Below, in pieces: positions 11,936 to 28,207 of a stretch of 64,000 nucleotides of DNA (within the stretch, counting starts at the first letter, position 1; the number at the start of each line of letters is the position of its first letter). The translations under genes were made by a program, and so were the position numbers. The notes under the pieces are model-generated. The model ran no database searches, was not told where the DNA came from, and worked only from the letters and a program-made list of their open reading frames with translations. This stretch comes from Sphingomonadales bacterium (GTDB lineage Bacteria; Pseudomonadota; Alphaproteobacteria; Sphingomonadales; Sphingomonadaceae): positions 26,388 to 90,387 of the forward strand of contig JANYGX010000010.1 in assembly GCA_025362295.1 (NCBI GenBank), given 5' to 3'.

Positions 11936-12029
11936 CTTAACTTAATATCGATGAGTCTGTACTGGGGTAATGTGCTGGCCTATAAACCCATCCACCCGAT
12001 TACTGTGGCAATCTCGACTGAACCCCCGA

Positions 12030-12446: not shown

Positions 12447-13290
12447 TGGGATATCTCACCAGAGAATCGAGGCCAGGCACAAAAGGCTCGCCGCGAAAAT
12501 TCAACCGATTGTAAAATTTGTTGATGCAGCTGTCCTGTCGCTTGTCACAGCCAGCCGTGATGTCCAGCCGATCACCCACTTGCAGGCCAAGGCGGGGTGG
12601 TGCACGCAAACCAATTTGTATCGACGCCCCTGCCGACCCTGATGTCAGAATTTCGCCTTCATCGCTATCGTTGTTGCCAGACAGCCAGCGCACCCGCCCA
12701 TAAGCCAGATAACCGGCAAGCTGAAAATAACCGCTCACTGGCGCTGTGACCAAAAAGTTTTGCATGTCAATAACACGGGTGATGACCGCCTTGAATTTAT
12801 AAGGTTGCAGGTTAACACGGCACCGCGCATCGCCAAGCTCGGCTCGGCATTCCGGCGAATAGAGTTCCACAACCGGTGCGTCCAAGGCATCGGTAAGGCC
12901 GCGCACTTCAACAGAGAATTTTTTGTCTTCCTCACGCACGGTGCCAAAATGACCGGAAGAGAGCGCCACGCTGCCAGCATCCGGCTGCGACCAATCCACT
13001 AGAAACAAGCGAATTTCCGCACCATCAAAACGCCCAGCGCTAAGATCGCTGGCTTCAATCGCTGCATGGCTGAGCACACCGGCAAGTTCAATGGTATCGA
13101 CGGAAAACCCTGCCGACATGACCAGCGCACTGGGTGAGAACGAGGGTGTGGCCAGATAGCGCTGGCCATCGATGATAATATCGCGGTCGTGGTTGGTAAA
13201 ACCCAACACCACGCCGTCGCGCCGGCCAATACGCCAGCACAAAGCCGTGCTGGTGAGCGGGCCTGCGAGAAGATCAGTGATGGTTGTCAT
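12439..13290 (-). CDS. GTA g13-like hub protein (DUF2163 + BR0599 C-terminal domain)
   Basis: 283 aa. N-terminus LTSTALCWRIGRRDGVVLGFTNHDRDI. C-terminus CDKRQDSCINKFYNRLNFRGEPFVPG matches the recalled Phage_BR0599 motif. Confidence 0.8.
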   Translation of the reverse strand: MTTITDLLAGPLTSTALCWRIGRRDGVVLGFTNHDRDIIIDGQRYLATPSFSPSALVMSAGFSVDTIELAGVLSHAAIEASDLSAGRFDGAEIRLFLVDWSQPDAGSVALSSGHFGTVREEDKKFSVEVRGLTDALDAPVVELYSPECRAELGDARCRVNLQPYKFKAVITRVIDMQNFLVTAPVSGYFQLAGYLAYGRVRWLSGNNDSDEGEILTSGSAGASIQIGLRAPPRLGLQVGDRLDITAGCDKRQDSCINKFYNRLNFRGEPFVPGLDSLVRYPNG

Positions 13291-13378
13291 GATGGTGGCT
13301 CTCTATAATTAATATTTTAAATTTTTTCCTCCCCCCTTGCGGGAGAGAGGCAGAAAAAAACAGAGCGACGCTGGCCAA

Positions 13379-15709
13379 TCATTCCCTGATTTCCACAATC
13401 GGCACAGAAGCACTATCACCTGCCCGAAACGTGCTTGCCGAAACACTCAGCTGATCATCTTGAAACCGCACGGGCACATCGAACTGAAACCCGGCTGTGA
13501 TATTTTTACCGGCTGGAGGCGCCAGCGTAAAACTGATCAACCCGCCTGCGCCGAGCGCCCAGCCTGCATTCATCAGGGCACCGTCAACAGCGACCAGAAC
13601 GCTGGAAGCCACTGGCCGCGTGATGAACCGCACTGCTGCACCGTAATGCTTTGCCAATGGAAACGTTGTTGTGGTACCGTCGCCAAGGCCGATCGTCTGA
13701 TCCAGTGCTGTCACGGGCGCACCAAGGGCTGATGAAGTGTTATCAAGCGGATCGGTATAGCGAAAGCCGCGTGCACGCCCTTGGCGAGCCTCGAAAAAAG
13801 CCAGCAGCACAGCAAGATCAGCGTCTGATCGAATGCCGGGGGCGGCATCATAAACATGCCGCGCTTGCGCCCAGTTGATGTTGCGACTCTCATAGCCTGA
13901 GGTTGTCTCGACCACAGTGGTTGAAAATTGCGGGCCACCGGATGCCTTGCGGCCCAGCGCCAGTGGAAAAAGTATATCATCAAAGCCGTTCATATCTGTC
14001 TCCGTTTTATAAAGGGTAAAGCCATCGCGGTTGATTTGTGGCAGTGCCCAGATATAGCGGTTGCGCGCAAAGCTGGCGTTGGTTGCCACACGATCAATGA
14101 GGCCCCACTGCGCACGGCTGGCAGCATTCAAAACAAACCCGGCAAAATAATCTGTGCGGCTGTTTGGATAGCCCAGCCGTGTCTGCATCAAGGCAACACT
14201 TTGGGCATGGGCCGCAGCGTTGCCACTGGTGACAAACTCATAATCTTCCAGTTGTACCGCGTCGAATGCTGGCCAGGCCCAGCCGGTTGGAATGTTAGCG
14301 GGCAGCAACACAGCCGCTGCATCGGCGATAATTTGCGGGGTATAAATCAGCAGCGTCACCTCAGTGCCTGGCGCCTGCGTTTTAAAAGTGTTTTTAAGCG
14401 CAACCGTGGCCGCCGCCAACTGCGCACCGCACCACGTGACAAACGCCAGCTGGTCGGCGCTCAGGTTTTGCGTGACACTGGTGATGAACGCTGGCACCGG
14501 CTTGCCCGTGGCCGCAGGATACGCCGCCAGCACACTGGCATCGTAAAAACATGGTTTGCGATTTGCGCCAAGGCCAGACCACCACCACGGTTCACCAATC
14601 TGGGCTGTAAAGGTGATCGGAAAACTTTGCGCCAGACTGATAAATTGCAAAAATACTGTCTTGATGTAAGCCATGGCCGCTGTGTTCACTGGCGACAGCA
14701 GTGTTGACGGCGGGGTGTAGCCCGTGAGCGCCGGTGTGTTATCAAAAGCGCTTTGCTTCCACGCCAGCGGTGCCACCGCATCAAACAGTTCGAACGAAAC
14801 GGCAATGCCGACACCAAGACCATGCAGGGCCAGGCTTGCAAAAAAAGCTTGATGCCAGCTCACGCACGCGCCGTTCAGCACCTGCGGTGTGCTTGCCACG
14901 ATATAACGGCTTTCGCTGGCCGACCATTGCAGCGCATAATAATGGCTTTCGCCGACATAGTGATCGACCGCACCACGGTAGCCAAGCGCATGCAGGCCCT
15001 CAACCACACGCTGCGGGTTTTGATTGTACACATCATCGTAACCCGTTGCTGTGCGGTAGCCGTGCGGCGGTATGCGGCCATCGCCCATCGCCAGTCCCGA
15101 CATCGCCCCGACACAGCGCATGTTTGTCAGGGACACCGTCGCAAACGCTGGACCGCCAGCTATTGGCACGTCCATCGTTGCATCATAATCCACCGGCACC
15201 AGCGAGATGAACATGCGGTCGATATCACCGGTATACACTGGATCAGCGTTGCTGATGAGGTTGAAGCCGCCAACCATGGCATCAAAATCTAGCGCTATCG
15301 CTGCACTGGTGTTCGTGCCTGTCGCATAGTTCCAGAGCCGCACATACCAGACATGGGGCACACCGTTTGCATCGCGGCCCTCGATGGTGAGTGTTGGCCC
15401 GTTGATCGCGTCGAGCGGCTTCAGGTTACCGGTCTGGTCCCACTGGAACGACCATTTGAGGCCGCGATAATCCGTGTTTGTGGCATAGGCCAGAAGCGGA
15501 TGATCGATACTGTCAGCCGACCACCAGATCAGCCCAGCGAGATCTTTCTTGCTGACAAACACACACGCCACCTGCAAGGCATCAGCGGCCAGATTGTAAA
15601 CTGCTGCCGACATCGGGCGGGCAAAATCCACCGTCCAGTAGCGCGGATCGAAACGCTCGATTGTGGTCGTGCGCTGCTGGTCGTCAGCCGTTGCAAGCCA
15701 GTAGCTCAT
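13379..15709 (-). CDS. Fusion ORF: N-terminal region of about 560 aa (unassigned, possibly TIM-barrel/glycosidase-like) + C-terminal GTA g12 distal-tail (DUF2460/TIGR02217) domain
   Basis: 776-aa uninterrupted ORF. The last ~215 aa (MNGFDDILFPLALGRKASGGPQFSTTVVETTSGYESRNINW...FFEARQGRARGFRYTDPLD...) are a typical full-length g12. The preceding ~560 aa have no counterpart in canonical g12. Start overlaps the TMP stop. Confidence 0.7.
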   Translation of the reverse strand: MSYWLATADDQQRTTTIERFDPRYWTVDFARPMSAAVYNLAADALQVACVFVSKKDLAGLIWWSADSIDHPLLAYATNTDYRGLKWSFQWDQTGNLKPLDAINGPTLTIEGRDANGVPHVWYVRLWNYATGTNTSAAIALDFDAMVGGFNLISNADPVYTGDIDRMFISLVPVDYDATMDVPIAGGPAFATVSLTNMRCVGAMSGLAMGDGRIPPHGYRTATGYDDVYNQNPQRVVEGLHALGYRGAVDHYVGESHYYALQWSASESRYIVASTPQVLNGACVSWHQAFFASLALHGLGVGIAVSFELFDAVAPLAWKQSAFDNTPALTGYTPPSTLLSPVNTAAMAYIKTVFLQFISLAQSFPITFTAQIGEPWWWSGLGANRKPCFYDASVLAAYPAATGKPVPAFITSVTQNLSADQLAFVTWCGAQLAAATVALKNTFKTQAPGTEVTLLIYTPQIIADAAAVLLPANIPTGWAWPAFDAVQLEDYEFVTSGNAAAHAQSVALMQTRLGYPNSRTDYFAGFVLNAASRAQWGLIDRVATNASFARNRYIWALPQINRDGFTLYKTETDMNGFDDILFPLALGRKASGGPQFSTTVVETTSGYESRNINWAQARHVYDAAPGIRSDADLAVLLAFFEARQGRARGFRYTDPLDNTSSALGAPVTALDQTIGLGDGTTTTFPLAKHYGAAVRFITRPVASSVLVAVDGALMNAGWALGAGGLISFTLAPPAGKNITAGFQFDVPVRFQDDQLSVSASTFRAGDSASVPIVEIRE

Positions 15710-16272
15710 GCGCGTGACCCCGCTTGTTCAAGCGAGCGCCGCACGGCGGCGGCAATCTGCCCAGCACTGCGCGCCATGATGCGCGGCTCAGCCGCACCGC
15801 CCGTCACATTGACCGTGATCGCCACAGTCTGTTTGGCGGCTGCGCCGTTCGGCTGAACGCTGCCAGCGCCTTGCGGGATGAACAGCTCAGGGCCGCGCTC
15901 GCCGACAATATAGGGCTGACCGCTGGTGACTGCACCACCGCCAGTGCGGCCGGGCAAGCCGACAGCGCCAAGCAGCGATGACACCAGACTGCTCCCGACA
16001 CCACCACTGCCAAACAGGCTACCAAGGCCAGACTTCAGCGCGCTTGAGGCAATATCGGCAAGCACGCCAAGGGCTACTTTTTTGAAACTGTCAAAACTCA
16101 GCGAACCGGTTTTGACAAACTGTTCAAAGGCGCTGGTCAGGCGCTTACCAGTCGATTGACCAGCCACATCGAGCAGGTTTAAATCCTCTTTGGCTTTTTT
16201 GAGGTTTTGCGACAGTGCCGTGGTGTCGGCCTTCACCGCCACCACCAGGGTATCAAGGGTTGTTTCAGCCAT
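15706..16272 (-). CDS. GTA g11-like short tail tape measure protein
   Basis: Start trimmed to MAETTLDTLVVAVKADTTALSQNLKKAKEDL. C-terminal block GGGAVTSGQPYIVGERGPELFIPQGAGSVQP is the recalled TMP/g11 motif. Confidence 0.75.
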   Translation of the reverse strand: MAETTLDTLVVAVKADTTALSQNLKKAKEDLNLLDVAGQSTGKRLTSAFEQFVKTGSLSFDSFKKVALGVLADIASSALKSGLGSLFGSGGVGSSLVSSLLGAVGLPGRTGGGAVTSGQPYIVGERGPELFIPQGAGSVQPNGAAAKQTVAITVNVTGGAAEPRIMARSAGQIAAAVRRSLEQAGSRA

Positions 16273-16483
16273 GGGGAGCATCCGGAAAAAGTGTGATGAG
16301 TTTATGAAGATCGGTGCGCGTGACGCCATGCTCAGGCACAATGCCCAAACTCTCGCACCAGCCATGCCAAGCGAGTTGCACCTCGCGTGGTGTCAGTTGC
16401 CAGAAATCAGCTGGTGACCAGCCGCGCACGCCACACGCCCATTTCAAATGATTGTGTGCGTGTTTGCCAAAGCTGTCAGACAC
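16265..16483 (-). CDS. GTA g10.1-like tail assembly chaperone (rcc01693 family)
   Basis: 72 aa with WSPADFWQLTPREVQLAW. GTG start overlaps the g10 stop (GTGTCTGA). Confidence 0.7.
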   Translation of the reverse strand: MSDSFGKHAHNHLKWACGVRGWSPADFWQLTPREVQLAWHGWCESLGIVPEHGVTRTDLHKLITLFPDAPHG

Positions 16484-16781
16484 CGCCGAGCGCCTGTTGC
16501 ATCACTGCACGGAACACGGGCGTGAGCTGTGCAAGGCCAGCCTTCATGCAGGCCTCGCAAAACACATCCTGAAACAGCGTGGCTGATTTGGGTTCAACAC
16601 AGCACCAGAGCACAGTGACAAGCGATTGCAACGACAGCCGTCCATCACTGGCGGCATCAATAACCGCAAACAATGGCCCGACGGATTGCTCGGCGGCAAC
16701 CAGATTCGCATAGCTTGGTATGAGTGTATAGGTGGTGGTACCAAGCACCAGCGCCACCTCACCGCGGCTCATGTTGATCAT
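16476..16781 (-). CDS. GTA g10-like tail assembly chaperone
   Basis: 101 aa. RGEVALVLGTTTYTLIPSYANLVAAEQ...LQSLVTVLWCC is typical of the 'gene transfer agent family protein' found after the tail tube gene. Confidence 0.7.
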   Translation of the reverse strand: MINMSRGEVALVLGTTTYTLIPSYANLVAAEQSVGPLFAVIDAASDGRLSLQSLVTVLWCCVEPKSATLFQDVFCEACMKAGLAQLTPVFRAVMQQALGGV

Positions 16782-17187
16782 GACCCAAAGCTCACAGCAC
16801 CGGTCGATTGCAAAGTCATCGTGTAGGTGCGCTCGCCGTTGTAATCACCGGCAAAATCGAGCTTGGTGATGAAGAATTTACCGCGCAACGTGTCGCTGCT
16901 TTCAAACATCACGCTATAATCATCGACAACACTGCTGAGCGCATTGTTGCGCGCACGCAGTTCGGCCGCAGAATTCATAAATTACCCGAGCCTGTTAACG
17001 TCACACTCTTAAGCCCTGCGCCTGAGAGAATTTCACTCCAGCCGCCAGAGTTTTTGGTCGTGATATCAACCGGATTGGCATTGATGGCAAGCGTTGTGGC
17101 ACGCAAGCCCGCAATGGTCGTGTAGTTGGGTGGCAAGGCCCCATCGCCGATTTTCAAGAGAAAAGCCGAGCCTTTTTCAGCTGACAT
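16778..17187 (-). pseudogene. Major tail (tube) protein, TP901-1/g9 family, split by a 1-nt frameshift
   Basis: ORF 16975-17187 (MSAEKGSAFLLKIGDG...TIAGLRATTLAINANPVDITTKNSGGWSEIL...LTGSGNL*) and ORF 16778-16978 (MNSAAELRARNN...FFITKLDFAGDYNGERTYTMTLQSTGAVSFGS) together make one ~136-aa g9. The frames differ by 1 nt at GGTAATTTATGAATTC. Confidence 0.75.
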
Positions 17188-17229
17188 AGAATGTTCCTTT
17201 ATGTTGGGAGAGTGGTGAGTGGTTTATGG

Positions 17230-17260
17230 AAAAAAGCTAGATACCAGCCGGCTTTGGTAT
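17230..17260 (-). terminator. Terminator-like hairpin between the g8 and g9 homologues
   Basis: The minus strand reads CATACCAAAGCCGGCTGGTATCTAGCTTTTTTCC: 6-7 bp stem, then a 5-nt spacer and T6. Confidence 0.4.
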
Positions 17261-17285
17261 GACGCCTAAATATTAAAGTGCGCAC

Positions 17286-17684
17286 TCAGGTCGCAAAGAT
17301 CCGCACACGAAATTCAATAATGCCGTGGTGTGTCAGCCCGTCAGGATCAACCAGATTGATCGCCTGCAAAAACCGCAGCGAAATCAGTTTGAAACCGGCA
17401 ACCGCAAACGGCGTCGCAAGTGCAGCCTGCACCAGGGCCATCAGTTGCTTGGCCTCTTGCCGACCGGCCTTGCGTGACCAGATGTGCACGCTGATGCGGT
17501 GCTCGCTTGCCGCCACATCCTTGGTCGAATAATCCACCACCACATCATCGCCAATCGACACATAGGGCAAGGCTTGATCCTGCGGCGGCATATCGAACAC
17601 ACCGGTGATTACAGCGCCAAGCGGTGCAGACGCCACCAGCGCCCCATAAACCGCTTGCTGCAAGGCAAGGGATGCAGCGGTCAT
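17286..17684 (-). CDS. GTA g8-like tail terminator (DUF3168)
   Basis: 132 aa. LQQAVYGALVASAPLGAVITGVFDMPPQDQALPYVSIGDD...ISVHIWSR is a typical DUF3168 pattern. Confidence 0.7.
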   Translation of the reverse strand: MTAASLALQQAVYGALVASAPLGAVITGVFDMPPQDQALPYVSIGDDVVVDYSTKDVAASEHRISVHIWSRKAGRQEAKQLMALVQAALATPFAVAGFKLISLRFLQAINLVDPDGLTHHGIIEFRVRIFAT

Positions 17685-17941
17685 AGCACACCGCCGGTGC
17701 GTATAGCGCTGATGGACTGGGTGATCAGCCGCAATTCCGGCTGGTGCACCGTGCCAAATTCGCGCTGCGGCCCGAGTGTGCCGCTGGCCAATACAACATA
17801 ACCATTGCCGCGTTCCTCTATGCTCAGCGCTGCCGCATTGCCACCGCGTGATATCACTTCGCTAACAATACGGTTAGCAAGCGCAAACGCCCTTTTTTTT
17901 GTAGCTTCAACGGCCTTTCGTTCGAGACTGAAATCGATCAT
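17681..17941 (-). CDS. HK97 gp10-like tail-completion protein (not recalled in the canonical RcGTA set)
   Basis: Start trimmed to MIDFSLERKAVEATKK (ATGA overlap with the upstream stop). REFGTVHQPELRLITQSI resembles the EFGT....PFL.PA gp10 motif. Confidence 0.45.
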   Translation of the reverse strand: MIDFSLERKAVEATKKRAFALANRIVSEVISRGGNAAALSIEERGNGYVVLASGTLGPQREFGTVHQPELRLITQSISAIRTGGVL

Positions 17942-18273
17942 TGTTCGCGCTCCTGTTGTGTTATGAGAACAAGCCTGTCGAGCTTCTCGGGCGGGCGGTC
18001 GAGCGACAGGATAGACAGTTTTTTGCCGTTCCACACCACGCGCCAGCGCACATCGATATCGGGCGCATAGCGCAGCGTGATCTGGTAGCGGTTGAGGGTT
18101 GCGACACGACCGGCATAGTTTGTTTCTGCCATCGGGAGGCTTGTGACTGCAGCCCAGCGTGTATCGACACTGACCCAGCTGCGACTTTTGCCGCCGTAGC
18201 CATCTGTTGCATCGATCGCGCGTTCAAAGCGCACCCGCTGCCACATGGTGCCGGAAAATTCTCCATTGCTCAT
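17938..18273 (-). CDS. GTA g7-like head closure / head-tail adaptor protein
   Basis: Start trimmed to MSNGEFSGTMWQRVRFERAIDATDGYGG...WAAV...YQITLRY (SPP1 gp16/HK97 gp9-like). GGGG Shine-Dalgarno 8-9 nt upstream. Confidence 0.7.
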   Translation of the reverse strand: MSNGEFSGTMWQRVRFERAIDATDGYGGKSRSWVSVDTRWAAVTSLPMAETNYAGRVATLNRYQITLRYAPDIDVRWRVVWNGKKLSILSLDRPPEKLDRLVLITQQEREQ

Positions 18274-18284
18274 GTTGAACGCCC

Positions 18285-18830
18285 CTATGCCAGACGCAGG
18301 CGTTTGTAGGGCCGCCACAGCGCTGAGGCAGCAAGCGCAAGCCCCGCCGTTTGCGGCTCGTCGCGGTGGCTGTAAAGATGCACCGCCTGACGAATAATGC
18401 CAAGCCGCAACGCTTCAGCAAGGCCGTTCCAATCGCTGGCCATACCAGCGATGTAGTCAAGGGTGATGCGCGACAACGGCAAGGGTGCCACAGCCAGTTT
18501 CACTGTGGCTTCATCGTTCATATCCGTGCTGACTTGCACAGTTGGCAGTGCAACCGCAGTAGTCACCCCAAGTGGATCGAGCAGGGTGAGAGCCACAAGA
18601 CTGATAAAGGGTGCCTTACCAAGCGCTATGGTCTGCAGGGCAACCCTGTTTTCACGCCACACGCTGGAGAGCAGAACCAGACCCGTAAAATCTTCTGCCT
18701 GGGCAAGGGCTGCACGCAGCAAACCGCTTAACAGGGCATCATCATCGGCCGTGTCGATGCGCAGATAGGCTTTCAGTTCTGACAGCAGCGTGGCTGGCAA
18801 AACCGCTGGCTGTATAAGCGTCATGGTCAT
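18285..18830 (-). CDS. GTA g6-like head-tail connector (gp6 family)
   Basis: Start trimmed to MTMTLIQPAVLPATLLSELKAYLRIDTADDDALLSGLLRAALAQAEDFTG. ATGA overlap with the preceding gene's stop. Confidence 0.75.
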   Translation of the reverse strand: MTMTLIQPAVLPATLLSELKAYLRIDTADDDALLSGLLRAALAQAEDFTGLVLLSSVWRENRVALQTIALGKAPFISLVALTLLDPLGVTTAVALPTVQVSTDMNDEATVKLAVAPLPLSRITLDYIAGMASDWNGLAEALRLGIIRQAVHLYSHRDEPQTAGLALAASALWRPYKRLRLA

Positions 18831-19111
18831 CAGCGTAACTCCACACGCACAGAGAGCGAGCGCGTTTCCGCGCGGCCATCGCTGAACACCACATGATTGG
18901 CAATGTGATACAAATGCCCAGCAACACCGCCGATCATGGTGGCGGTGGTTTTTGTTGTTGTGAAACTTTGTGTTTGCACGGCAAGGCCACCGGGTTCGGT
19001 TGGCATAACACTCCATGCGCTGGTGGTGAGTGTCTGCACATCGAGATACCCCGCTGCCCAGTCAATGGCATAATCCAGCACCGCATCCGGCGCTTTCAGA
19101 TAGGTGGACAT
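18830..19111 (-). CDS. Small phage virion-associated protein (IDW-motif family; function unknown)
   Basis: 93 aa. MSTYLKAPDAVLDYAIDWAAGYL...ANHVVFSDGRAETRSLSVRVELR, translationally coupled to g6. I only vaguely recognise the family as phage fibre/adaptor-like. Confidence 0.5.
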   Translation of the reverse strand: MSTYLKAPDAVLDYAIDWAAGYLDVQTLTTSAWSVMPTEPGGLAVQTQSFTTTKTTATMIGGVAGHLYHIANHVVFSDGRAETRSLSVRVELR

Positions 19112-19186
19112 GTGTGTGGTCCTTTATGTGTTGGGTTGAAAATAATTGAGGGGCTGCAAAAAGCCATAACTGCCATATGGATTGCC

Positions 19187-19561
19187 CTAAACCGGGTTGG
19201 CGATTTCCACATCCCATGCGGTGATGTTGACTGTGCCGCCGGTTGTCAGCGCCTGTGCCGTGCTTGTGGTCACGTAGAGCAACCGTTGCCCGGTGACATC
19301 CAATAGGGCCACGTGCGTGGCAGACCCTGCAGTGAGCACCGGCACGGCTGTTTTTGCCGCTATGGTTGCCCGCCTGCCGCTGGTGACACCAGCTGCCAGT
19401 ATGAAATCAGCCGTTGCCATCACAACCTCGGCAAGCTTCATCGTGGTGTTGGCATCGGTGTAGGTGAGCGGTTGTGCTGAACACACCACCATTTTTGTTA
19501 CATTGGTTTTGAGCACAGTGAGAGCGCCATCGAGCACATCGGTGCTGACTGATTTGGCCAT
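19187..19561 (-). CDS. Hypothetical phage structural-module protein
   Basis: 124 aa, Thr/Ala/Val-rich (likely beta-rich). Same strand and tight spacing with its neighbours. No family recognised. Confidence 0.45.
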   Translation of the reverse strand: MAKSVSTDVLDGALTVLKTNVTKMVVCSAQPLTYTDANTTMKLAEVVMATADFILAAGVTSGRRATIAAKTAVPVLTAGSATHVALLDVTGQRLLYVTTSTAQALTTGGTVNITAWDVEIANPV

Positions 19562-19579
19562 GGGATTTTCCTTTTTGGG

Positions 19580-20110
19580 TTATGAAAATGATACGGGGGT
19601 AACACGGGGTTGGCGCAACACCGGTTGCAGGCGCGGATCAACAGAGGCGATTTGCAGGCGCTGATCCTTACTGGCTGGCGTGACGTGCGCACGCGCTATG
19701 AGTATGAGTGCGACAAGTGCATTGGTCGCACTGCTGGTATGTTTACTGCTGGCAGCATTGAGTGACCACATTGGCAACAGCGCTGTCGATGTGGACATGA
19801 TGCCATGCAGTGCGCTTGATGCTTGCAGGGTATAAACACTATTGAGGACCGGCAATTGAGCCGTTTGGTCGTGCCTGGCAAACGTAACCGTTGTTGTAAC
19901 ACTTGCCGAAAGCGCCGACAGGCCTGCTGCCTGGCTTGCCAGCGTGTGCCGTGCAAAATTTATTGCAAGGCTTGCTGGTGCAACGGCAGCAAGTGTGGCA
20001 GCCTGCGCGCTATGCAGGTGTTTTGCACTGGCACACGTGACAGCCACCGGCAGACCGAGACCGGCAACGCCTGCCTTGTGCGCATGTTTTGCATTGGCAG
20101 CTGTGGGCAT
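19580..20110 (-). CDS. Tandem-repeat protein (about seven repeats of ~18 residues with A-x-(A/S)-(K/R)-H cores)
   Basis: Start trimmed to MPTAANAKHAHKAG (AAGG about 10 nt upstream). Repeat cores: ANAKHAH, ASAKHLH, NFARHTL, FARHDQ, SSALHG, ASSKHT, ARAHVT. Coding status is uncertain because of GC-rich shadow ORFs on the opposite strand. Confidence 0.4.
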   Translation of the reverse strand: MPTAANAKHAHKAGVAGLGLPVAVTCASAKHLHSAQAATLAAVAPASLAINFARHTLASQAAGLSALSASVTTTVTFARHDQTAQLPVLNSVYTLQASSALHGIMSTSTALLPMWSLNAASSKHTSSATNALVALILIARAHVTPASKDQRLQIASVDPRLQPVLRQPRVTPVSFS

Positions 20111-20274
20111 GGAACGTGCCTTTGTGAGGGTGATGCGTGAAAAACGGCTAAACTTTGCTCTCTCCCCCACAAGGGGGAAGAGGCAGAGTCATTCGGTATT
20201 AATGGCACTATCGTGTGCCGCCGTGGCCGGAAGGGGAAACAGCCACGGCGGTACGTTCAACATGTCACGAGGGG

Positions 20275-21475
20275 TTATGACACATCGAATTTCATCAACT
20301 TGATCGCCTCGCTGTTGAGCACTGCGCCGCCGACGCGTTTGGTTGCATAAAACTGCACATAGGGTTTGTTGGTGAACGGATCGCGCAGGATGCGTGTGCC
20401 AACACGGTCCGCAATAATATACCCGTGATAGAAATTACCAAAAGCGATTGACAGGCTGCCGGTACCGACATCCGGCATGTCTTCCGCTTCAACCACATCG
20501 TAACCCAGTAAGGTTGGCGAGCGGCCTTCGGAAAAACTTGGTTGCCAGATGAAATGCCCGGTCGCATCCTTAAATTTACGGATGATCGAGACCGTTTTTG
20601 AATTCATCACCCAGACAGCGCCTTGTCGGTAGGTGGCGCGCAGGCTGTGCAGCAGATCGATCAGCTGTTCGGCTGGTGCTGTCGCCGAAAACCCGCCGGC
20701 AACGCCGGTGGCATTATATTGCAAGGTGCCAAAAGCCCGTGTTGCATCGGGGGTGGCGGCAATCGGGTAGGTCAGAAAACCTTTTGGTTTGGCTGTGCCG
20801 TTGCCATTGATAAACGCCGTGCCTTCCTTCTGGGCAAAGTCGCGGGCAATTTCTTCAGTGAGCCATTGTTCGACATTGAAGAACGCATCATCCAGCATGA
20901 ACTGTGTGGCGGACGGGTTGGCATAAAGATCACCCGCTGGCGGAAATTTGCGTGAACGTGGTCGCCGCTGTTGTTGGCCGTGCATCCTGCTCAGCGGCCC
21001 AGCCGGATGTGAGGCCAGACGATGCGACCAGCTTGCTATAGCCAGATGTGCCAACTTGCACATTTTGCGCGACGGCCCTCAGCGGCGATACAGCCCGCAA
21101 GCGCAATTCGATATTGGCATCGATTTGCGGGGTGACAGTGTAGCCACCTTCTGCCGGCACGCTGATATCGAGCGCTTTGGTTTGTAGCGCCTGCAAACCG
21201 GTTTCATTGCCGCGACGCAGGTATGAACCAAACGCGGCCTTCAGTTCAGGGTCTTCCTCGACAACAGCGGCTGCCGATTGCAAGGGGCGCTGGGCAGCCC
21301 GGCTGATTTTTTCCATGCGCGATTTCACCTGAATTATTTCTGCATCAATGCGGTTCAGTTTTTCATTCAGCAGCACATCGTGCCGAGCCGTATCGATGTC
21401 GTTTACAGTGTCTGCAAACGCCGTGTGCACCGCCTTCATGTCATGCGAGGCGGCTTTTGTTTCATAGGTGGTCAT
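20275..21475 (-). pseudogene. HK97-family major capsid protein (g5), interrupted by a 1-nt frameshift
   Basis: ORF 20930-21475 ends ...ARPTTAATTFTQISASG*. ORF 20275-21063 carries ...PPAGDLYANPSATQFMLDDAFFNVEQWL... to the C-terminus ...AIKLMKFDVS. Skipping one T in CAAATTTCCGCC gives the contiguous ...TFTQIPPAGDLYA... and a capsid of about 398 aa. Confidence 0.8.
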
Positions 21476-21933
21476 TGTGGTTGGTCTCCAGTTGTTGGGG
21501 TTTGTGTTGGCGGGTTTTGCACCATCAGCCGTGCCAGAGGCTGCATGGGAAACGTCACCACCGAGATTTCGACAAGCTCAAGCTCGGTGAGGATACGGAT
21601 TTTACGAAGTCTGTTGAGGCTGAACTGGCGCACTCGGTAGCCGATGGAGAGGCCGTTCAGGGCGCCGTCGCACACAAGGGCATTGGCATCAGAACCAATT
21701 TGTGCACCCGTGGTGAAATGGCCGCTAATTTTTAGGCCGCGCGTGTCTTCAGCAATGCTTTCAATCACCCCGATCGGGTTTTTGATATCATGCTGCCAGA
21801 GCAGTGGCAGAGCCTGCTTTCTGGCAAGCGCTTTTTGAAAAGCGCCAGGCATAATCACATCGCCGCCGCTGTCCGGCATAGAAAATACTGCAGCATAACC
21901 GTCGAAACGGTTTGCCGTTATTGGCATGGTCAT
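21472..21933 (-). CDS. HK97-family prohead protease (g4)
   Basis: 153 aa. FDGYAAVFSMPDSGGDVIMPGAFQKAL...LPLLWQHD...PIGVIESIAEDTRGLKISG. Overlaps the capsid start. Confidence 0.85.
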   Translation of the reverse strand: MTMPITANRFDGYAAVFSMPDSGGDVIMPGAFQKALARKQALPLLWQHDIKNPIGVIESIAEDTRGLKISGHFTTGAQIGSDANALVCDGALNGLSIGYRVRQFSLNRLRKIRILTELELVEISVVTFPMQPLARLMVQNPPTQTPTTGDQPQ

Positions 21934-21955
21934 ACATTTTCCTTGGATTATAAAT

Positions 21956-22270
21956 TCAGTGCAACAACACGTTTGGCAGGGCGCGCCACTTGATCAGCAG
22001 CAGGCAAAACACACCAATGACAGCAAGGCGAAACACCCAGCCGATCAGACTGTGGGTGATCGAGCGTTTGGCATCGCGCCAAGCGTCCAGCAAATCCCGC
22101 ACGTCGCGCAGATCCTGTGCGGCAACGGCATCCTCCAGCCCCAGGCGGGCAAGCGCCCGCGACGCCCCCAGTTCGGCTGCCTCTTCCACCAGCGCATGAA
22201 TTGTCACCACAGCAGCGCCCTCACGCGTTGCCTGATCGGCAAGCGCTGCAAGCAGGCCATGGCTGGTCAT
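21956..22270 (-). CDS. Small C-terminally membrane-anchored protein, g3.5 (rcc01685)-like in position and architecture
   Basis: 104 aa. Helical/acidic N-terminal part, then the TM helix LIGWVFRLAVIGVFCLLLI. Located between portal and protease, as g3.5 is in RcGTA. Confidence 0.5.
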   Translation of the reverse strand: MTSHGLLAALADQATREGAAVVTIHALVEEAAELGASRALARLGLEDAVAAQDLRDVRDLLDAWRDAKRSITHSLIGWVFRLAVIGVFCLLLIKWRALPNVLLH

Positions 22271-22348
22271 GATGGTTATCTTTCAGTGTTTGTAGATGAG
22301 GCTAATTTGCGAAAATGCCATCCCCGCTAAAAATCGGGAGGCATATTT

Positions 22349-22519
22349 TCAAATCGTCAGCACAACCAGCCCGTCATCCGCATCACGGATCACTGTGAAC
22401 TGATACGGCTCTTGCTGTTTTGGTTTGGGCCGGGTGATGGTGACGGTGGGCAACTCAAGTTCGCCTTTTCGCGGTGCATCCTGAACAACAGCAGCAATAC
22501 ATACAGCAATCATCATCAT
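22349..22519 (-). CDS. Possible small membrane/secreted protein
   Basis: Trimmed ORF MMMIAVCIAAVVQDAPRKGELELPTVTITRPKPKQQEPYQFTVIRDADDGLVVLTI. Supported only by position and strand. Confidence 0.3.
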   Translation of the reverse strand: MMMIAVCIAAVVQDAPRKGELELPTVTITRPKPKQQEPYQFTVIRDADDGLVVLTI

Positions 22520-22641
22520 GGCAACATCCTTAACAGAAATTTTACACCTGTTGACACGCAAGCCTTGTGCCACGCAAAATTAGTCTGCAATTTCCGACTT
22601 GAATCAGAGATATTGATTAATCGTACCAATATAATGTCAAG

Positions 22642-23850
22642 TTATCCGTCACTGATGTCTTCACGCAACATGGTTAACCCAAGCAGCTGGCGTTTTTCGG
22701 TGTCGCTGAGAAACGCCGCCGCACTCACCTGCGCCCAGACTTGCGCACGGTCAGTCGCCAGCGCTGGAATAGAATCGAGATCAATGCCGAGTTCAAGCTC
22801 TGGCCAATAGAGTTGCAACCAGCCGGAGAGGCTTGCAAGAATGCGTGTCGATAGCGGCAACAGCGTGGCGCGCCACAGCGCCTTGCTCGCCTCCTGATAG
22901 TTGCTATAGGTGGCGTCCCCCGGAATATTAAGCAGTATCGGCGGCACACCAAACGCCAGCGCAATGTCGCGCGCAGCGGCATGGCGCGAATTGATAAAAT
23001 CCATATCCGCTGGTGTCATCGACAGCGGCTGCCATTTCAGGCCGTCTTCCAGCAACAGTGGCCGCCCGGCATTGTCGGCCCCCTGAAAATGATCGGCCAT
23101 TTCACCCTTAAGCCGCGTGTACTGATCCGCCGTGAGGTTGGTTGCGCCGTCGCCGGGTTCAAACACCAGAGCCCCTGAGGGGCGTGCGGCATTCTGCAAC
23201 AATCCAAGCGTCCACTGCGCTGCAGCGTTGTGCGTTTCTATGGCAAGGGCCGCTGAATCAACCCCGCCTAGCCCGTAATGATCGTCCAGCGGATTGAACG
23301 TTTTCAGGTGCAGCAAGTCGGACCGGCCCGTGAGCGGATCGACAGCAAAATTCACCACTGTGCCCGCCACTTGATATTTGTAGGTGGCCGGCCAGCCGGT
23401 GGAACTCGCGACCACTGTCACCCGCTCTGGTCGCAGCAGATAGAGCTCCGCTGGGGCCCCGTCATGCCCCTCGACAAGTTCAATATAGGCATTGCCGTGC
23501 AACATCAGATAGCTCGCTAACGCTTCCATAAATGCCGGACCGCTTTGCGCAGCGTTGGGCTGGGCCAGCAGTTTGAGCACGGGATGCTGCGGGCTTGCCC
23601 GGCCCTGTTCCGACGCAGTGAGTTCAAGCGAGGCCAGACCGTCACTCAGCATCTGCACCGCGCGTCGCGCCACCGGATTGCGCTGGTAGCCATCGCGTGT
23701 GAGTGCCTCGTAGCCCAGCGCCCCAAAGCGCGGCAGGCCGGTTGTGAGGTAAGCCGCAAATGTCGAGCGGGATATGCTGCCACTGGGCGGCAAATTGGTG
23801 CGACTGGCTTTGGTTGCAAAACGGTGGCGCAAACGCGAGAGCAGGGTCAT
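22642..23850 (-). CDS. HK97-family phage portal protein (g3)
   Basis: 402 aa. ...YLMLHGNAYIELV...FNPLDDHYGL...LLNIPGDATYSNYQEASKALW... is typical of portal proteins. Confidence 0.9.
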   Translation of the reverse strand: MTLLSRLRHRFATKASRTNLPPSGSISRSTFAAYLTTGLPRFGALGYEALTRDGYQRNPVARRAVQMLSDGLASLELTASEQGRASPQHPVLKLLAQPNAAQSGPAFMEALASYLMLHGNAYIELVEGHDGAPAELYLLRPERVTVVASSTGWPATYKYQVAGTVVNFAVDPLTGRSDLLHLKTFNPLDDHYGLGGVDSAALAIETHNAAAQWTLGLLQNAARPSGALVFEPGDGATNLTADQYTRLKGEMADHFQGADNAGRPLLLEDGLKWQPLSMTPADMDFINSRHAAARDIALAFGVPPILLNIPGDATYSNYQEASKALWRATLLPLSTRILASLSGWLQLYWPELELGIDLDSIPALATDRAQVWAQVSAAAFLSDTEKRQLLGLTMLREDISDG

Positions 23851-23953
23851 GAGCGATGGTCCTTTGTGATCAGAAAAGTGATAGTATAGAATTTAGACAA
23901 GTGGCGCTAAGCTTTGCGAGCTCTCCCGCAAGTAGAGAGAAGTAGAAAACGAT

Positions 23954-25273
23954 TTATAATGATCTCAATTGCGGCACGGCGGCCAGTGCACCAAGCGCAA
24001 GTTCAGTCACCGCCCACACGAGCGCGTCAGCGCGGTCTGGCGAGCGCGTGGCACCGGCATAGCCGCCGCCAATCTGCAAGCCGCAAAGCTCATCCTCCAG
24101 TGCTGAAAAGGCCCGGGCATGGTGCACATGGCCGCGCTCATAGAGTGCGGCAACCGGCTCGGCGCGCGCGACCTTGCCGCGTGAGGCCCGCACCAGTTTG
24201 AGAGGCAGCACAGCGTTCTGTGCCCGTAAAACAGACCCCACCAGATCGCCACCATTGTTGACTTCCGCCACAATCCGGTCTGCACCAACGCGGGCAGCAA
24301 CATCAACAGCCACGCGCGCCCAGTGTTCTGGTGAGGCACCCTGAAGGCTTGCATCTGCCAGCACATAAACATGGCCATCGGCGGCAATGCCGGCGGCAAC
24401 AATGCCGCAGGCATCGGCTGTGGCACTGTGCGACACTGGCGGATCGACCGCCACCACAACGCGCATCAGCTCTGGCACGCTGTCCACATGGCAGGCGTCC
24501 ATCAGCGCGCGGCTGAACAGCGCGCCTTCGATATCCTCGATAAAATCACCATCGATTTCCTGGCGCCCCATTCTGGTGCCTGCATAGGCGCGCTCCAGCG
24601 ACAGCACAAAATCGGCCGGAAGCGCTGCCAGATTGTCGTGCATGCGGCCACGCGCCACGATGGTGCGCTCTGCCACCAACATTTTTTTGATAAGACCAAT
24701 CGGGCGCGGTGTGGTGGTGACGCACGCCCGCGGGTGCTTGCCCAGCCGCAAGCCCATTTGTAGGTTCATCCACACAGCCTCTGTATTGGGCCACTTCGCC
24801 AATTCATCACACCAAGCAAAATGGTGTTGCCCGCCGCGCAGGCCGTCTGCATCTTCAGCGGAATACACCAGCGCTTGTGCGCCACTTGGCCACAGCAACC
24901 GCCGACGGGAGATTTCATAGCGGGGCCGCGCATGATCAGGTGCTATGGCCATCAACCCGCTTTCACCTTCGATCATCACCTCGCGCGCTTCGTTGTAGGA
25001 AGCCGCAACCAGGGCAACACGGCAACGCGGATGCTTCGTCACACACGCCCGTATCCACTCCGCTCCCGTGCGAGTTTTGCCAAAGCCGCGACCGGCCAAC
25101 ACCAGCCAGGTGCGCCAGGTGTCATGGGCTGGCGGCAACTGATTGGGTCGTGCCCAGAAGCGCCAGTCTTTGGCCAGCGCTGCAAGCCGCTCCGGGGGCA
25201 GATCGGCAAGCACGGCACGACGCTCCGCCGCCGAAAGTGCCGACAGCTGCTGGGCAAGCGATGTTAGAGACAT
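23954..25273 (-). CDS. Terminase large subunit (g2)
   Basis: Start trimmed to MSLTSLAQQLSALSAAERRAVL (the tracked ORF has a 95-aa implausible extension). LVLAGRGFGKTRTGAEWI Walker-A-like motif. Nuclease half ...VVAVDPPVSHS...DACGIV. Confidence 0.9.
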   Translation of the reverse strand: MSLTSLAQQLSALSAAERRAVLADLPPERLAALAKDWRFWARPNQLPPAHDTWRTWLVLAGRGFGKTRTGAEWIRACVTKHPRCRVALVAASYNEAREVMIEGESGLMAIAPDHARPRYEISRRRLLWPSGAQALVYSAEDADGLRGGQHHFAWCDELAKWPNTEAVWMNLQMGLRLGKHPRACVTTTPRPIGLIKKMLVAERTIVARGRMHDNLAALPADFVLSLERAYAGTRMGRQEIDGDFIEDIEGALFSRALMDACHVDSVPELMRVVVAVDPPVSHSATADACGIVAAGIAADGHVYVLADASLQGASPEHWARVAVDVAARVGADRIVAEVNNGGDLVGSVLRAQNAVLPLKLVRASRGKVARAEPVAALYERGHVHHARAFSALEDELCGLQIGGGYAGATRSPDRADALVWAVTELALGALAAVPQLRSL

Positions 25274-25355
25274 AGTGGATACTCCTGCATGGCGGTGGGC
25301 GGCGGTATGTTCAGACATGTGGCGAACAAACGAGAGCGGAAGAAAAGCTTTGTGT

Positions 25356-25958
25356 TCACTCGCCCAAGTGTTCTGGACCGAGCCTGTTCTCAGTGACACC
25401 ATCACCATCACTCTCGCCGTCCCGTTTTGCAGCTGCCAGCCGTGCCAGTCTTGCCTCAATTTGCGTGCGCACATCGGCGGTTTCATCCACCACACCCGAA
25501 CCCACTTCAGCAAACGCCTCGGGTCGCCGGTTGCGCAGCATGAACATCGCCAGCGCATCGGAATAGTGTTTGTAGGTGCCCTCGCATTTGCCTTTGTAGA
25601 TGAGAGGTTTGTCGAGACCGTGGATCACCCGGTCGAGCAGCACGGCTTCCAGCCCATCGAGCGCCTGATTGATGGCAATGTGCCAGGCTGCAGCAAATGC
25701 CGGATTTTTACGGCGCTCCGCATAGGCATGCCACGGCGCCATGTTCATCTGCAAAGCGCTCTGGCGCACATTGGCGGTATCTGTCAGTCGCACCAGAAAT
25801 TCATGCCGGCGCTTTTCATTCCAGATGAATTTTTTGAGCGGTAGTTTTTTACCGACACGTTTTTTTACTGGTTTGGCGACCGCTGGTGATTTTTTTTTGC
25901 TTCGTATGGGCACAGCGACTTTTGCTGGTGTTTGTGTTTTTTCAGTCAATGGAAGCAC
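25356..25958 (-). CDS. Terminase small subunit-like DNA-binding protein
   Basis: 200 aa. Lys-rich N-terminus, then EKRRHEFLVRLTDTANVRQSALQMNMAPWHAYAERRKNPAFAAAWHIAINQALDGLEAVLLDR...YSDALAMFMLRNRRPEAF, the pattern recalled for alphaproteobacterial phage TerS proteins. The start (GTG 25958 or TTG 25949) is uncertain. Confidence 0.55.
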   Translation of the reverse strand: MLPLTEKTQTPAKVAVPIRSKKKSPAVAKPVKKRVGKKLPLKKFIWNEKRRHEFLVRLTDTANVRQSALQMNMAPWHAYAERRKNPAFAAAWHIAINQALDGLEAVLLDRVIHGLDKPLIYKGKCEGTYKHYSDALAMFMLRNRRPEAFAEVGSGVVDETADVRTQIEARLARLAAAKRDGESDGDGVTENRLGPEHLGE

Positions 25959-26106: not shown

Positions 26107-26577
26107 ATGACGATCAATCCGGTAACGACACCCTCGGCACCAGCATCCCTATCCCAAACTCAGGCTGCAGACCGCACCGAACGCCAAGCGCTGCTGAAAG
26201 ATTTATTTGCCAGTGCCCAAAAAGGCGATGTGGCACAGGCTAAAATTGATGCCGACAAACTGAAGGCCTATGCCGACGCGCACAATGCCAAAGCCGGACC
26301 GAAGCCAGCGTTTTTCGATTTTCTCAACAAGGTGCTCGATGCCGTTAAAAGTGGCGATGCCGAAAAATTAAAAACGGCTTACACCAGCGGCATCAAGGAT
26401 TTTCGCGCTGACACCGGTGTCACGGCTAAAAACGAGACACGCAAAGCCGCCTTTCTAGCCGAACGCGCTGCTGAAATCGCCAGTGGTGGCAAAGACGCTG
26501 ATGACACCAAGCCCGCTGCCAACAAGCCACCAGTCAATGCATCTGGCCTGCCATCGGCAATCAACATTACGGCTTAG
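26107..26577 (+). CDS. Hypothetical Ala/Lys-rich helical protein, divergent from the GTA-like operon
   Basis: 156 aa. AAGGA Shine-Dalgarno 7 nt upstream. No TM segment, signal peptide or recognised family. Confidence 0.5.
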   Translation: MTINPVTTPSAPASLSQTQAADRTERQALLKDLFASAQKGDVAQAKIDADKLKAYADAHNAKAGPKPAFFDFLNKVLDAVKSGDAEKLKTAYTSGIKDFRADTGVTAKNETRKAAFLAERAAEIASGGKDADDTKPAANKPPVNASGLPSAINITA

Positions 26578-26791
26578 AGGGTTTTGATATACCCTCCCTT
26601 GCGGAAGAGGATAGGCAAACTGGGCGGCGTTCTATAGTCGCCCAGTTGAAGTTAAAGAGGGGGGGCGGAAGGCAGCGGGTTTATCGTCAGCGGCCTATTG
26701 ATTGCCGCTTGGTGGCCTCACCTGATTTCCCACTTTGCTTTAATGTATAACCAATAGCGTAACGCTTGTCAACAGTTATTTTCAAATAAGG

Positions 26792-27529
26792 TTATATTTT
26801 ATAAAAGACCACCAGCCGGTCAAGCGCTAGCGCCAGCACAACCTTGGCGGTTCGCACGGGCCATTGCATGGCTTTTTCCGCCGTTTCCAGCCCTTCCCCC
26901 ATGCAGGCGACGCGCCACAGCACATCTGAGAGGCCGGGGCCTGCAGCGGCGATGGCCGCCTCGAAACGGCGCCTGGCAGCCAGCTGTGCTGTTGTCGGAT
27001 CGAGCGCCTCGGCTGGCCCCCGTGCGGTCTTCCCCATCGGCGGGGCATCCCAGCTCATGGTCACTTTCGGGGCGCGCGCAGCGCTATGAAAATCCGCCCG
27101 CAGCTTTTCGCCAGCCTTGAACTGGGCAGCGGTTATGAGCTTGCGACGGGCAAGCCACGCCAGGGGTGATTCGGCGAGATTGATGTCGGTATAGACCGTG
27201 GTGTCCGGCAGTTTGACCCTGGCCATGACTCGGTTTTGCCGGTCAAAACCTTCAGCCGTGGTGTTTTTTGAGCGCACGGCGAGCTCGCGCTCCAGCCAGC
27301 GTTTGCCGGGCTCGCTGATGACCAGACGGCGCACGCCGTCGGCCATAATCAAATCCGCCGCGCTCAATTGATCAACCACGTGCCGCGCAATATACATTGT
27401 GTCGCAACGGAATTCATCAGCCTCCCGAATCAGCGCCTGGCCAGCCCCGAGTTTGCGCAGCAGGGATTTGGCCAGTGTGCCAAGGCGATTCGCCAGCAGT
27501 GGCAGTGTGGTTATACGGCTTAAAGTCAT
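26792..27529 (-). CDS. GafA/GafZ-like GTA activator candidate (DUF6456-type domain)
   Basis: 245 aa. The central block DINLAESPLAWLARRKLITAAQFKAGEKLRADFHSAARAPKVTMSW matches my recollection of the DUF6456 signature (ESPL.WL.RRK....AQ..AGERLR.DF). AAGGA Shine-Dalgarno. Lies about 800 bp from the GTA-like cluster. Confidence 0.5.
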   Translation of the reverse strand: MTLSRITTLPLLANRLGTLAKSLLRKLGAGQALIREADEFRCDTMYIARHVVDQLSAADLIMADGVRRLVISEPGKRWLERELAVRSKNTTAEGFDRQNRVMARVKLPDTTVYTDINLAESPLAWLARRKLITAAQFKAGEKLRADFHSAARAPKVTMSWDAPPMGKTARGPAEALDPTTAQLAARRRFEAAIAAAGPGLSDVLWRVACMGEGLETAEKAMQWPVRTAKVVLALALDRLVVFYKI

Positions 27530-27640
27530 GCAAAAAATCCTTCATCAAAAGTGATTCGCAAAGGCTAACCGAATTATGGGCTTGTAGGAAAGCTATTTAA
27601 CCGTTACGGTGTTTTCATCAATCATTCTGGAGAGTTACAT

Positions 27641-28207
27641 ATGCACAGTCGTATCCGCGAAGTTCGCCGCGCCAAAGGCCTCACCCTTGCAGACGTTGGG
27701 GCACGCTGCACCCCGCCCACCACTGCCCAAACCATCGGGCGACTCGAAACCGGTATGCGCACCATATCGGTCGATTGGCTGAACCGCATTGCTGGTGCCC
27801 TGCTGGTTGACCCAAGCGATCTGGTCGCCATGACCGACCGGCCCGATGTGCCAGTGGCTGCCATCCTCTCAGCGCGCGGGGCCGAGGCGCCGCGCCACCC
27901 CATGGTGCTGACAGCACCCGCTGCTCAGACCAATCTGGTCGGTATGGTGGTTGAAGATTCGAACGGCGATTACCGTGCTGGCGACCATGTCTGGCTCGCA
28001 CAGCTCGCTGGCCCTGATTTTACAGATGCGCTCAACCGCGATTGCCTGTTGCCGCTGCCCGCCGGTGCCTTTGTGTTTGGCAGGGTGATCGTGGCGACAG
28101 CCGACGGCGATGTCACCATTCTCCCCATCGGCCGTGCCGAGCGCCCGCTTTCCGGTCTAAAGCCCGGCTGGGTTGCCATGGCACAAACGATGATCAGGAA
28201 ACTCTAG
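27641..28207 (+). CDS. XRE-family HTH regulator with a degenerate LexA/CI (S24)-like C-terminal domain
   Basis: 188 aa. N-terminal HTH IREVRRAKGLTLADVGARC...TIGRLETGMRTISVDWLNRIAGAL. The C-terminal part VVEDSNGDYRAGDHVWL...FVFGRVI aligns by eye to V.GDSM.P.i..GD.v.v...KRl, but the Ser-Met and Lys positions are not canonical. Confidence 0.65.
   Translation: MHSRIREVRRAKGLTLADVGARCTPPTTAQTIGRLETGMRTISVDWLNRIAGALLVDPSDLVAMTDRPDVPVAAILSARGAEAPRHPMVLTAPAAQTNLVGMVVEDSNGDYRAGDHVWLAQLAGPDFTDALNRDCLLPLPAGAFVFGRVIVATADGDVTILPIGRAERPLSGLKPGWVAMAQTMIRKL

Follow-up and report, generated by a model that had tools for sequence, protein, structure and literature searches.

A divergent gene pair of RogA-like and GafZ-type regulators as the probable switch of an adjacent gene transfer agent cluster in Sphingomonadales

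At the head of a gene cluster resembling that of the Rhodobacter capsulatus gene transfer agent (RcGTA; GTA, gene transfer agent), a 64,000-nucleotide stretch of the genome of a Sphingomonadales bacterium (GenBank assembly GCA_025362295.1, contig JANYGX010000010.1, positions 26,388 to 90,387; hereafter the window, in which all coordinates are counted) carries two divergent genes, namely (i) on the minus strand, an open reading frame (ORF) at 26792-27529 encoding a 245-aa protein with a DUF6456 domain, and (ii) on the plus strand, an ORF at 27641-28207 encoding a 188-aa protein of the XRE type with a helix-turn-helix (HTH) domain. Taken together, the domain identities, the fold of the XRE protein, the loss of its catalytic residues, the order-wide synteny, the conserved DNA elements and the absence of GafY, all of which are established below, make it probable that this pair constitutes the master switch of the adjacent RcGTA-like GTA, where a RogA-like repressor would gate a GafZ-type antiterminator. 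The genome is a draft of 2.59 Mb in 37 contigs. In a preliminary description made from the letters of the window and their translated reading frames, the pair had been placed right next to a GTA-like cluster, and RcGTA-like genes do run on the minus strand from position 25958; the 111-bp spacer reported between the two divergent genes (27530-27640) was also recovered.

The terms of comparison come in the first instance from Caulobacter crescentus, where RogA is the repressor of gafYZ, i.e., a protein of 213 aa composed of an HTH and a LexA/cI-like domain devoid of the key residues, with the operator GGAA-N4-TTCC (Gozzi et al., 2022, PMC9632790). In the same bacterium, GafZ forms an antitermination complex, and the GafZ-binding element (ZBE), a palindrome GCGCCCG-CTGGCGC, is found in the promoter between its -10 and its -35; the native -35 of the promoter PgtaT, AATCAT, needs GafY, while initiation no longer depends on GafYZ once a consensus -35 is put in its place (Tran et al., 2024, PMC11150451). 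As such, the non-cleavable CI-like repressor of a GTA, initially put forward as part of an unusual control module, has a precedent, since the HTH/S24-like RogA was already known (PMC9632790).

Considering the minus-strand ORF, its identity as a GafZ-type DUF6456 regulator is supported. In a hidden Markov model search, the product matches Pfam PF20057 (DUF6456) over residues 116-244, with an E-value of 7.2e-40 and 136.7 bits for a cut-off of 26.3, which agrees with the domain first claimed for it, and DUF6456 is single-copy in the genome. The DnaA-domain-IV module (PF08299) gave no match in this protein, the same model detecting a GafY-type control protein from a Parvibaculaceae locus with an E-value of 1.2e-17; because this module is absent, the protein is not a GafA. 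Of the original label “GafA/GafZ-like,” the GafZ part consequently stands on the PF20057 match and the GafA part falls, the only PF08299 match in the whole genome being DnaA itself. With regard to the term “activator,” GafZ has come to be known as an antiterminator and not simply an activator (PMC11150451). In the structure model (pLDDT 77), residues 18-86 fold into a small alpha/beta domain, weakly matched by winged helices, and the C-terminal part weakly resembles sigma region 4 in Foldseek (about 60 residues, TM 0.65-0.84, probability 0.8-0.9, all E-values >0.3). In a small local search, a profile of the 112 N-terminal residues matches the N-terminal parts of long DUF6456 proteins from other alphaproteobacterial families (E 1e-5 to 1e-11), including lineages that also carry GafY, so that this N-domain is an old part of GafZ-type proteins; it probably corresponds to the central region of GafA. 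Most members of the window's own family possess a short form of about 165 aa lacking the N-domain. For the pair, an origin in phages was rejected, no true DUF6456 homologue being contained in 50,697 phage records. The sole match there, L049 (MW462191.1, “Bacteriophage sp.”), was set aside, as it looks like a fragment of bacterial chromosome, with gafY-gafZ-sufE synteny, protease II and EvgS, and is probably misclassified.

The XRE protein matches HTH_31 (E 2.8e-7) and HTH_3 (E 5e-6) over residues 4-61, the proposed HTH_3 search being thereby answered. While its C-terminal half had been described as a degenerate S24 domain, no match to Peptidase_S24 (PF00717) was obtained for it at E-values up to 1, alignment of the protein with the genome's own LexA by hhalign gave a probability of 0.1, and a sequence search of the PDB returned nothing beyond the HTH. 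Membership of S24 at the sequence level was rejected on the absence of a Pfam match and the hhalign result, the relationship being visible by fold comparison only. The AlphaFold model, built on 47 homologues and reaching a pLDDT of 90.9, finds as best PDB matches a full-length lambda-186 hybrid repressor (E 2.4e-5) and the Thermotoga LexA (9e-5), together with the C-domains of lambda cI and of Mycobacterium tuberculosis LexA (E range of the PDB matches 2e-5 to 1e-2, probability 1.00), and HTH-cupin enzymes rank below these LexA/CI proteins. Among the viral structures of BFVD, 36 proteins match the model at E-values up to 1e-3 (best 1.9e-9), many of them annotated as CI or LexA-type repressors. 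These PDB and BFVD matches support a LexA/CI fold even though sequence profiles miss it. Across the 47 homologues, (i) S107, the serine of “DSN,” is S, A or G, (ii) I150 of FGRVI, which corresponds to the LexA lysine, varies only among I, L and V, and (iii) the strand matching the cleavage site has VAA(I/V/L)L in place of Ala-Gly. With the serine not conserved, the lysine replaced and the Ala-Gly site absent, self-cleavage by the XRE protein is very unlikely; as to the degenerate S24 domain, the description was right in substance, i.e., a LexA/CI fold according to AlphaFold in which the catalytic Ser/Lys and the Ala-Gly site are absent or variable. Elsewhere, the genome also encodes a LexA of normal type and a single HTH-S24 protein that is CI-like and intact. 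A weak match to the XRE profile beside gcrA in a high-GC genome was discarded as a different protein, which keeps the GDS/K residues. As a separate observation, four loci from other alphaproteobacterial families (L039, L040, L041 and L045) have XRE proteins with an intact S24 GDSM...K signature that face weak DUF6456-like genes (E 1e-6 to 1e-10), and which would appear to be such a switch in cleavable form.

Both genes belong together well beyond the window. In a sample of 151 genomes of the order, 68 encode a DUF6456 protein above the cut-off, the named homologues coming from Sphingomonas, Polymorphobacter, Sandarakinorhabdus, Allosphingosinicella and Pedomonas. The XRE homologue shares the contig of the DUF6456 gene in 67 of the 68, in divergent orientation and about 0.1-1.5 kb away, and in the lone exception the two genes are on different contigs. 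Polymorphobacter multimanifer and Pedomonas mirosovicensis are among the species in which a single contig bears the two genes. For the 34 genomes outside the window's family, the TerL gene of the GTA is found within 3 kb of the DUF6456 gene in 30, the other four corresponding to contig breaks or no match; in the window, the distance is 1.6 kb. Given both counts, the layout cannot be called unusual, as had been done at first, although it does differ from the models of R. capsulatus and C. crescentus. Within the window's family (34 genomes), tight linkage of TerL is limited to the window genome and one other, TerL being 3.7-14 kb off in four genomes and, in the rest, far away, on another contig or, in 10 genomes, missing or truncated. 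TerL homologues across the order share 50-58% identity. In a class-wide search of 301 alphaproteobacterial genomes with an XRE profile, full-length relatives outside the order appeared in few lineages, namely Phaeomarinobacter/Pyruvatibacter, Parvibaculaceae and Futiania as well as some metagenome-assembled genomes, and not from Caulobacterales; a DUF6456 gene faces them in 10 of 11 loci, this XRE family facing gafY-gafZ or gafZ in Parvibaculales, Futiania and others. Based on the synteny within and beyond the order, the pair can be considered ancient and its linkage to the cluster the norm in the order. In the literature, homologues of gafA were reported in 196 of 208 GTA-bearing genomes, Sphingomonadales included, with the context not described, and the GTAs of sphingomonads were highlighted as strongly selected for efficient expression (Kogay et al., PMC9765227); our search found no paper pairing GafZ with a sphingomonad genus or describing the control of sphingomonad GTAs.

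In none of the 68 genomes was a second DnaA-domain-IV (PF08299) match found above the Pfam cut-off; below it, two genomes have sub-threshold matches and one a duplicate interrupted by a stop. All the Parvibaculales controls (5/5) carry a second PF08299 gene, i.e., gafY, between the XRE and the DUF6456 genes. Judging from these searches, the absence of GafY is a trait of the entire order.

The control region shared by the two genes differs from its aligned counterparts in L005 and L006 by about eight changes, while the DUF6456 protein is 90% identical. In this intergenic region, the TAACC-N5-GGTTA box is present with at most one mismatch in 15 of 23 loci, against 33 matches in 108,745 nt elsewhere, i.e., an enrichment of about 20-fold, and several families exhibit two boxes about 21-24 bp apart. 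Covariation of the box with the recognition helix of the XRE protein across lineages was not decisive, the helices being nearly identical between Sphingomonadales and Parvibaculales and the boxes different. One locus, L020 (G006:C32), has an insertion of about 1.1 kb in the control region, between the boxes and the DUF6456 gene. Next to the box in the window, the element T(G/T)TCCTACA is kept in L007, L008, L009, L010, L023, L025 and L027. The -10 consensus of Caulobacter and of Alphaproteobacteria is GCTANAWC, and T(G/T)TCCTACA is likely a -10 of this type for the DUF6456 promoter; if TCCTACAAG is taken as such a -10, the centre of the box is near -31, where a repressor operator would sit. 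Intact TAACC-N5-GGTTA boxes are also found at the position of the DUF6456 stop codon in L011, L013, L016, L018 and L019. It might be argued that the XRE protein does not repress the DUF6456 gene at all, and instead regulates, e.g., the downstream gene for an S8 peptidase or acts as a co-activator. An S8 peptidase gene does follow the XRE gene in every member of the small clade to which the window belongs, but the constant neighbour of the XRE gene across the order and beyond is the DUF6456 gene, and the -35 region of the promoter of that gene is covered in part by the operator-like palindrome, which makes this explanation very improbable.

The promoter of the cluster begins 19 bp after the DUF6456 stop codon. 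Between this stop codon and TerL, a promoter of the form TTGAC(A/T)-N16-18-TAnnnn with the same spacer motif, (A)GCGTnACGCT, is conserved in 20 of 21 linked loci from several families; a cluster promoter of the TTGAC(A/T) type also exists in L050 and, in loci with inserted genes, the promoter remains beside the structural genes. By analogy with the Caulobacter ZBE, which is placed in the same way, the palindrome AGCGTTACGCT of the spacer is a candidate GafZ-binding element. Besides the shared region, the preliminary description had proposed 25959-26106 for binding assays, whereas the conserved promoter lies at 26744-26772, right after the DUF6456 stop codon. A different site is apparent at 25959-26010 on the minus strand, about 25 nt upstream of the start of g1, where the palindrome ATTGCGTTGGCGCAAT is followed by TATAAC; identical in L005 and absent in L050, it may be a second promoter (start point) or an operator for the cluster. 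Considering that the -35 of the cluster promoter is a consensus one and that GafY is absent from the whole order, initiation there probably needs no activator. Downstream of the promoter, canonical intrinsic terminators precede g1 in the leaders of L005, L050, L008, L012, L013, L016, L017 and L021, leader terminators being found in about half of the relatives' loci, including the two closest relatives. The leader in the window has a fold z-score of -1.2 and a 9-bp stem followed by UUUGCC, and an Rfam search identified no known RNA in it.

Alternatively, the DUF6456 protein could be a classical activator like GafA, recruiting RNA polymerase both to its own promoter and to that of the cluster, perhaps by means of its N-domain on the boxes, with no role in termination. 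Such an activator has a precedent in the C-terminal domain of GafA, which binds and activates the RcGTA promoter (Sherlock and Fogg, 2022, PMC9638019), and the presence of the box at both the regulator and the cluster promoters is what would be expected of an auto-activating factor; furthermore, about half of the loci have no leader terminator, and that of the window is weak. Nonetheless, a promoter with a consensus -35 and a usable -10 should not need recruitment, the box is still present in the shared region of short-form DUF6456 proteins, which lack the N-domain, and a perfect palindrome with a 10-bp spacing of its centres suits a dimeric HTH repressor better than a domain resembling sigma region 4. 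On balance, a classical activator is unlikely.

In the reading preferred here, i.e., a repressor gating an antiterminator, the XRE protein would be a dimeric repressor of the lambda-CI/RogA kind having lost self-cleavage, which would bind the TAACC-N5-GGTTA-type box of the 111-bp region, occlude the -35 region of the DUF6456 promoter and so keep the DUF6456 gene off. Once a signal relieves this repression, the GafZ-type protein would be made and would load on RNA polymerase at the cluster promoter by way of the palindrome between -35 and -10, and the loaded polymerase could thereafter carry on across the leader and the 17 kb of the cluster, in the manner of lambda Q at PR'/tR'. The cluster promoter would otherwise be constitutive, control consisting of repression plus antitermination. 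The assignment of each protein to its site, the antitermination and the inducing signal are the parts of this scheme that we infer.

Several observations weigh against this scheme. The structural matches of the DUF6456 model are only weak. The operator motif of RogA, GGAA-N4-TTCC, is absent, the conserved palindrome and candidate operator being here AACC-N5-GGTT, and the DUF6456 protein, rather than the XRE protein, might bind the box. In the window, the second copy of the box is degenerate, the leader terminator is degenerate or weak compared with relatives, and the 156-aa antisense gene is interposed between the cluster promoter and g1. Generic scans for promoters and terminators do not flag the sites of the cluster promoter and leader, which is due to their fixed rules, the promoter being unlisted because the rule requires a T at position 6 of the -10. 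Finally, a frameshift divides the capsid gene into two ORFs in overlapping frames, at 20930-21475 (-) and 20275-21063 (-), which correspond to positions 1-72 and 74-280 of the capsid profile, respectively, and this particular GTA may therefore be decaying; the frameshift is either an assembly error or the start of decay, the gene being intact in the closest relative, L005 (405 aa).

Along the same line, the switch and the GTA of the window genome could together be a decaying relic, with regulators kept for some other reason or not yet lost and no particles made. The frameshifted capsid gene would fit, as would the second box and the leader terminator, both degenerate in comparison with relatives, and so would the situation in the window's family, where the cluster often lies unlinked and 10 of the 34 genomes keep the pair with TerL absent or shortened to about 130 aa (G122, G128, G134, G137, G140, G143, G007, G044, G074 and G089), a retention that also suggests a possible role of the pair outside the head-tail cluster. 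On the contrary, the XRE and DUF6456 proteins are 98% and 90% identical, respectively, to those of L005 and the control region is near-invariant, a sign of purifying selection; misassembly in a draft of this many contigs may account for the frameshift, and the other genes of the cluster are all open. A relic is accordingly quite improbable. A scan of the window genome for further copies of the cluster promoter or of the box revealed no convincing second site, only a loose match at C14:16697-16713, so that a GTA regulon is not demonstrated in this genome.

Respective to the known systems, the closest likeness is with RogA/GafY-GafZ of C. crescentus (Gozzi et al., 2022, PMC9632790; Tran et al., 2024, PMC11150451), with which the window shares (i) an XRE-HTH protein bearing a dead LexA/cI-like domain, likened by architecture, (ii) a DUF6456 regulator of the GafZ type, (iii) an RcGTA-like structural cluster as target, (iv) a palindrome between the -35 and the -10 of the cluster promoter, and (v) terminators in need of bypass, of which the window itself holds a weak candidate. 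The two differ in that GafY is present in Caulobacter and absent from the window's order, that the -35 of the cluster promoter is TTGACA in the window against the degenerate AATCAT in Caulobacter, and that the Caulobacter parts are dispersed over three distant loci (CCNA_00080, i.e., RogA, 01111-2 and 02880-61) while being contiguous in the window. With GafA of R. capsulatus, and the split gafA of Hyphomicrobiales, the window protein shares the C-terminal DUF6456 domain (Fogg, 2019, PMC6363796; Sherlock and Fogg, 2022, PMC9638019), and an HTH or mucR gene is located upstream of gafA in Hyphomicrobiales (PMC9638019). However, GafA possesses an N-terminal DNA-binding module of the DnaA-domain-IV type, which the window protein lacks, is encoded away from the cluster and acts via the omega subunit of RNA polymerase, whereas the window regulator adjoins its cluster. 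The arrangement also recalls lambda Q/PR'/tR', i.e., a regulator gene directly upstream of a strong late promoter, a binding element inside this promoter, a terminator in a short leader (in relatives) ahead of packaging, head and tail genes, and a CI-type repressor upstream in the cascade. Yet lambda Q has no similarity of sequence or fold to the DUF6456 protein, and the window repressor is proposed to act directly on the antiterminator gene and is presumably not RecA-cleavable. The pair, typical for its clade, is best described as a variant of the RogA/GafZ circuit that lacks GafY and is fused to the cluster.

Table 1. Position of the regulatory pair, its DNA elements and the adjacent GTA cluster in the window.
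Feature	Position	Strand	Remark
XRE-HTH repressor candidate	27641..28207	+	LexA/CI-like C-terminal domain without Ser/Lys dyad or Ala-Gly site (RogA-like architecture)
GafZ-type regulator	26792..27529	-	N-terminal winged-helix-like domain (about residues 18-86) and DUF6456 (residues 116-244)
Shared 111-bp control region	27530..27640		Near-invariant between window and relatives with diverged coding DNA
Palindromic box TAACCGTTACGGTGT	27598..27612		TAACC-N5-GGTTA as consensus in the family; putative operator, lying on the -35 region of the DUF6456 promoter
T(G/T)TCCTACA element, TTTCCTACA in the window	27583..27591	-	Likely -10 of the DUF6456 promoter; about 10 nt beyond the box
Degenerate box copy (TAACCTTATTTGAAA, minus strand)	26780..26794		Overlaps the DUF6456 stop codon; upstream of the -35 of the cluster promoter
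GTA cluster promoter	26744..26772	-	TTGACA (26772-26767), 17 nt, TATACA (26749-26744)
Spacer palindrome AGCGTTACGCT	26756..26766		Candidate GafZ-binding element, placed between -35 and -10
Leader of the predicted cluster transcript	26578..26737	-	Hairpins at about 26700 and at 26620-26647; weak terminator candidate
156-aa gene without assigned function	26107..26577	+	Antisense, between the cluster promoter and g1
RcGTA-like head-tail cluster	9070..25958	-	Pfam matches; presumed target of the switch

The cluster itself comprises (i) a TerS-like gene, TerL, portal, DUF6127, S78 protease and capsid, (ii) a head-tail connector, the gp17 tail completion protein, GTA-gp10 and a short ORF resembling a tape measure, and (iii) DUF2460, Gp84_N/BR0599, NlpC/P60, Phage-tail_3/Rcc01698_C and DUF2793. 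The g12 (DUF2460) homologue, at 13379-15709 (-), exhibits an N-terminal extension of 560 aa with NCTSP_N and TIM-barrel_NCTSP domains (“non-contractile tail sheath”). The 156-aa antisense gene is confined to the three closest relatives, a small clade, and its product has no match in Pfam or NCBIfam; comparison with L005 gives 56 synonymous against 23 non-synonymous codon changes, 70 of 98 differences being at third positions, a pattern of substitution that points to purifying selection. Farther along the window, between 36000 and 50000, the G+C content is 0.46-0.49 against 0.55-0.61 elsewhere, and this segment may be an acquired island.

So far, the regulation of GTAs is understood only in Rhodobacter and Caulobacter, where regulators are scattered on the chromosome and dependent on GafA or GafY. 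The Sphingomonadales offer a compact version free of GafY, with the repressor, the regulator, the promoter and its candidate element, the leader terminator (in many relatives) and the structural genes in one stretch, i.e., a minimal system in which to study the mode of action of GafZ-type proteins and the question whether a GTA can be controlled by antitermination alone, and one for which the conserved DNA sites are now pinpointed. More tentatively, and with doubt prevailing over conviction, Sphingomonadales and some other Alphaproteobacteria might be viewed as having a GafY-free, lambda-like, two-step circuit fused to the cluster, where a non-cleavable CI-like repressor would gate the GafZ antiterminator and the latter alone would decide whether transcription from a constitutive consensus promoter passes the leader terminator; this would be the ancestral and simplest form of GTA control, from which the dispersed circuits of Caulobacter and Rhodobacter would be derived.

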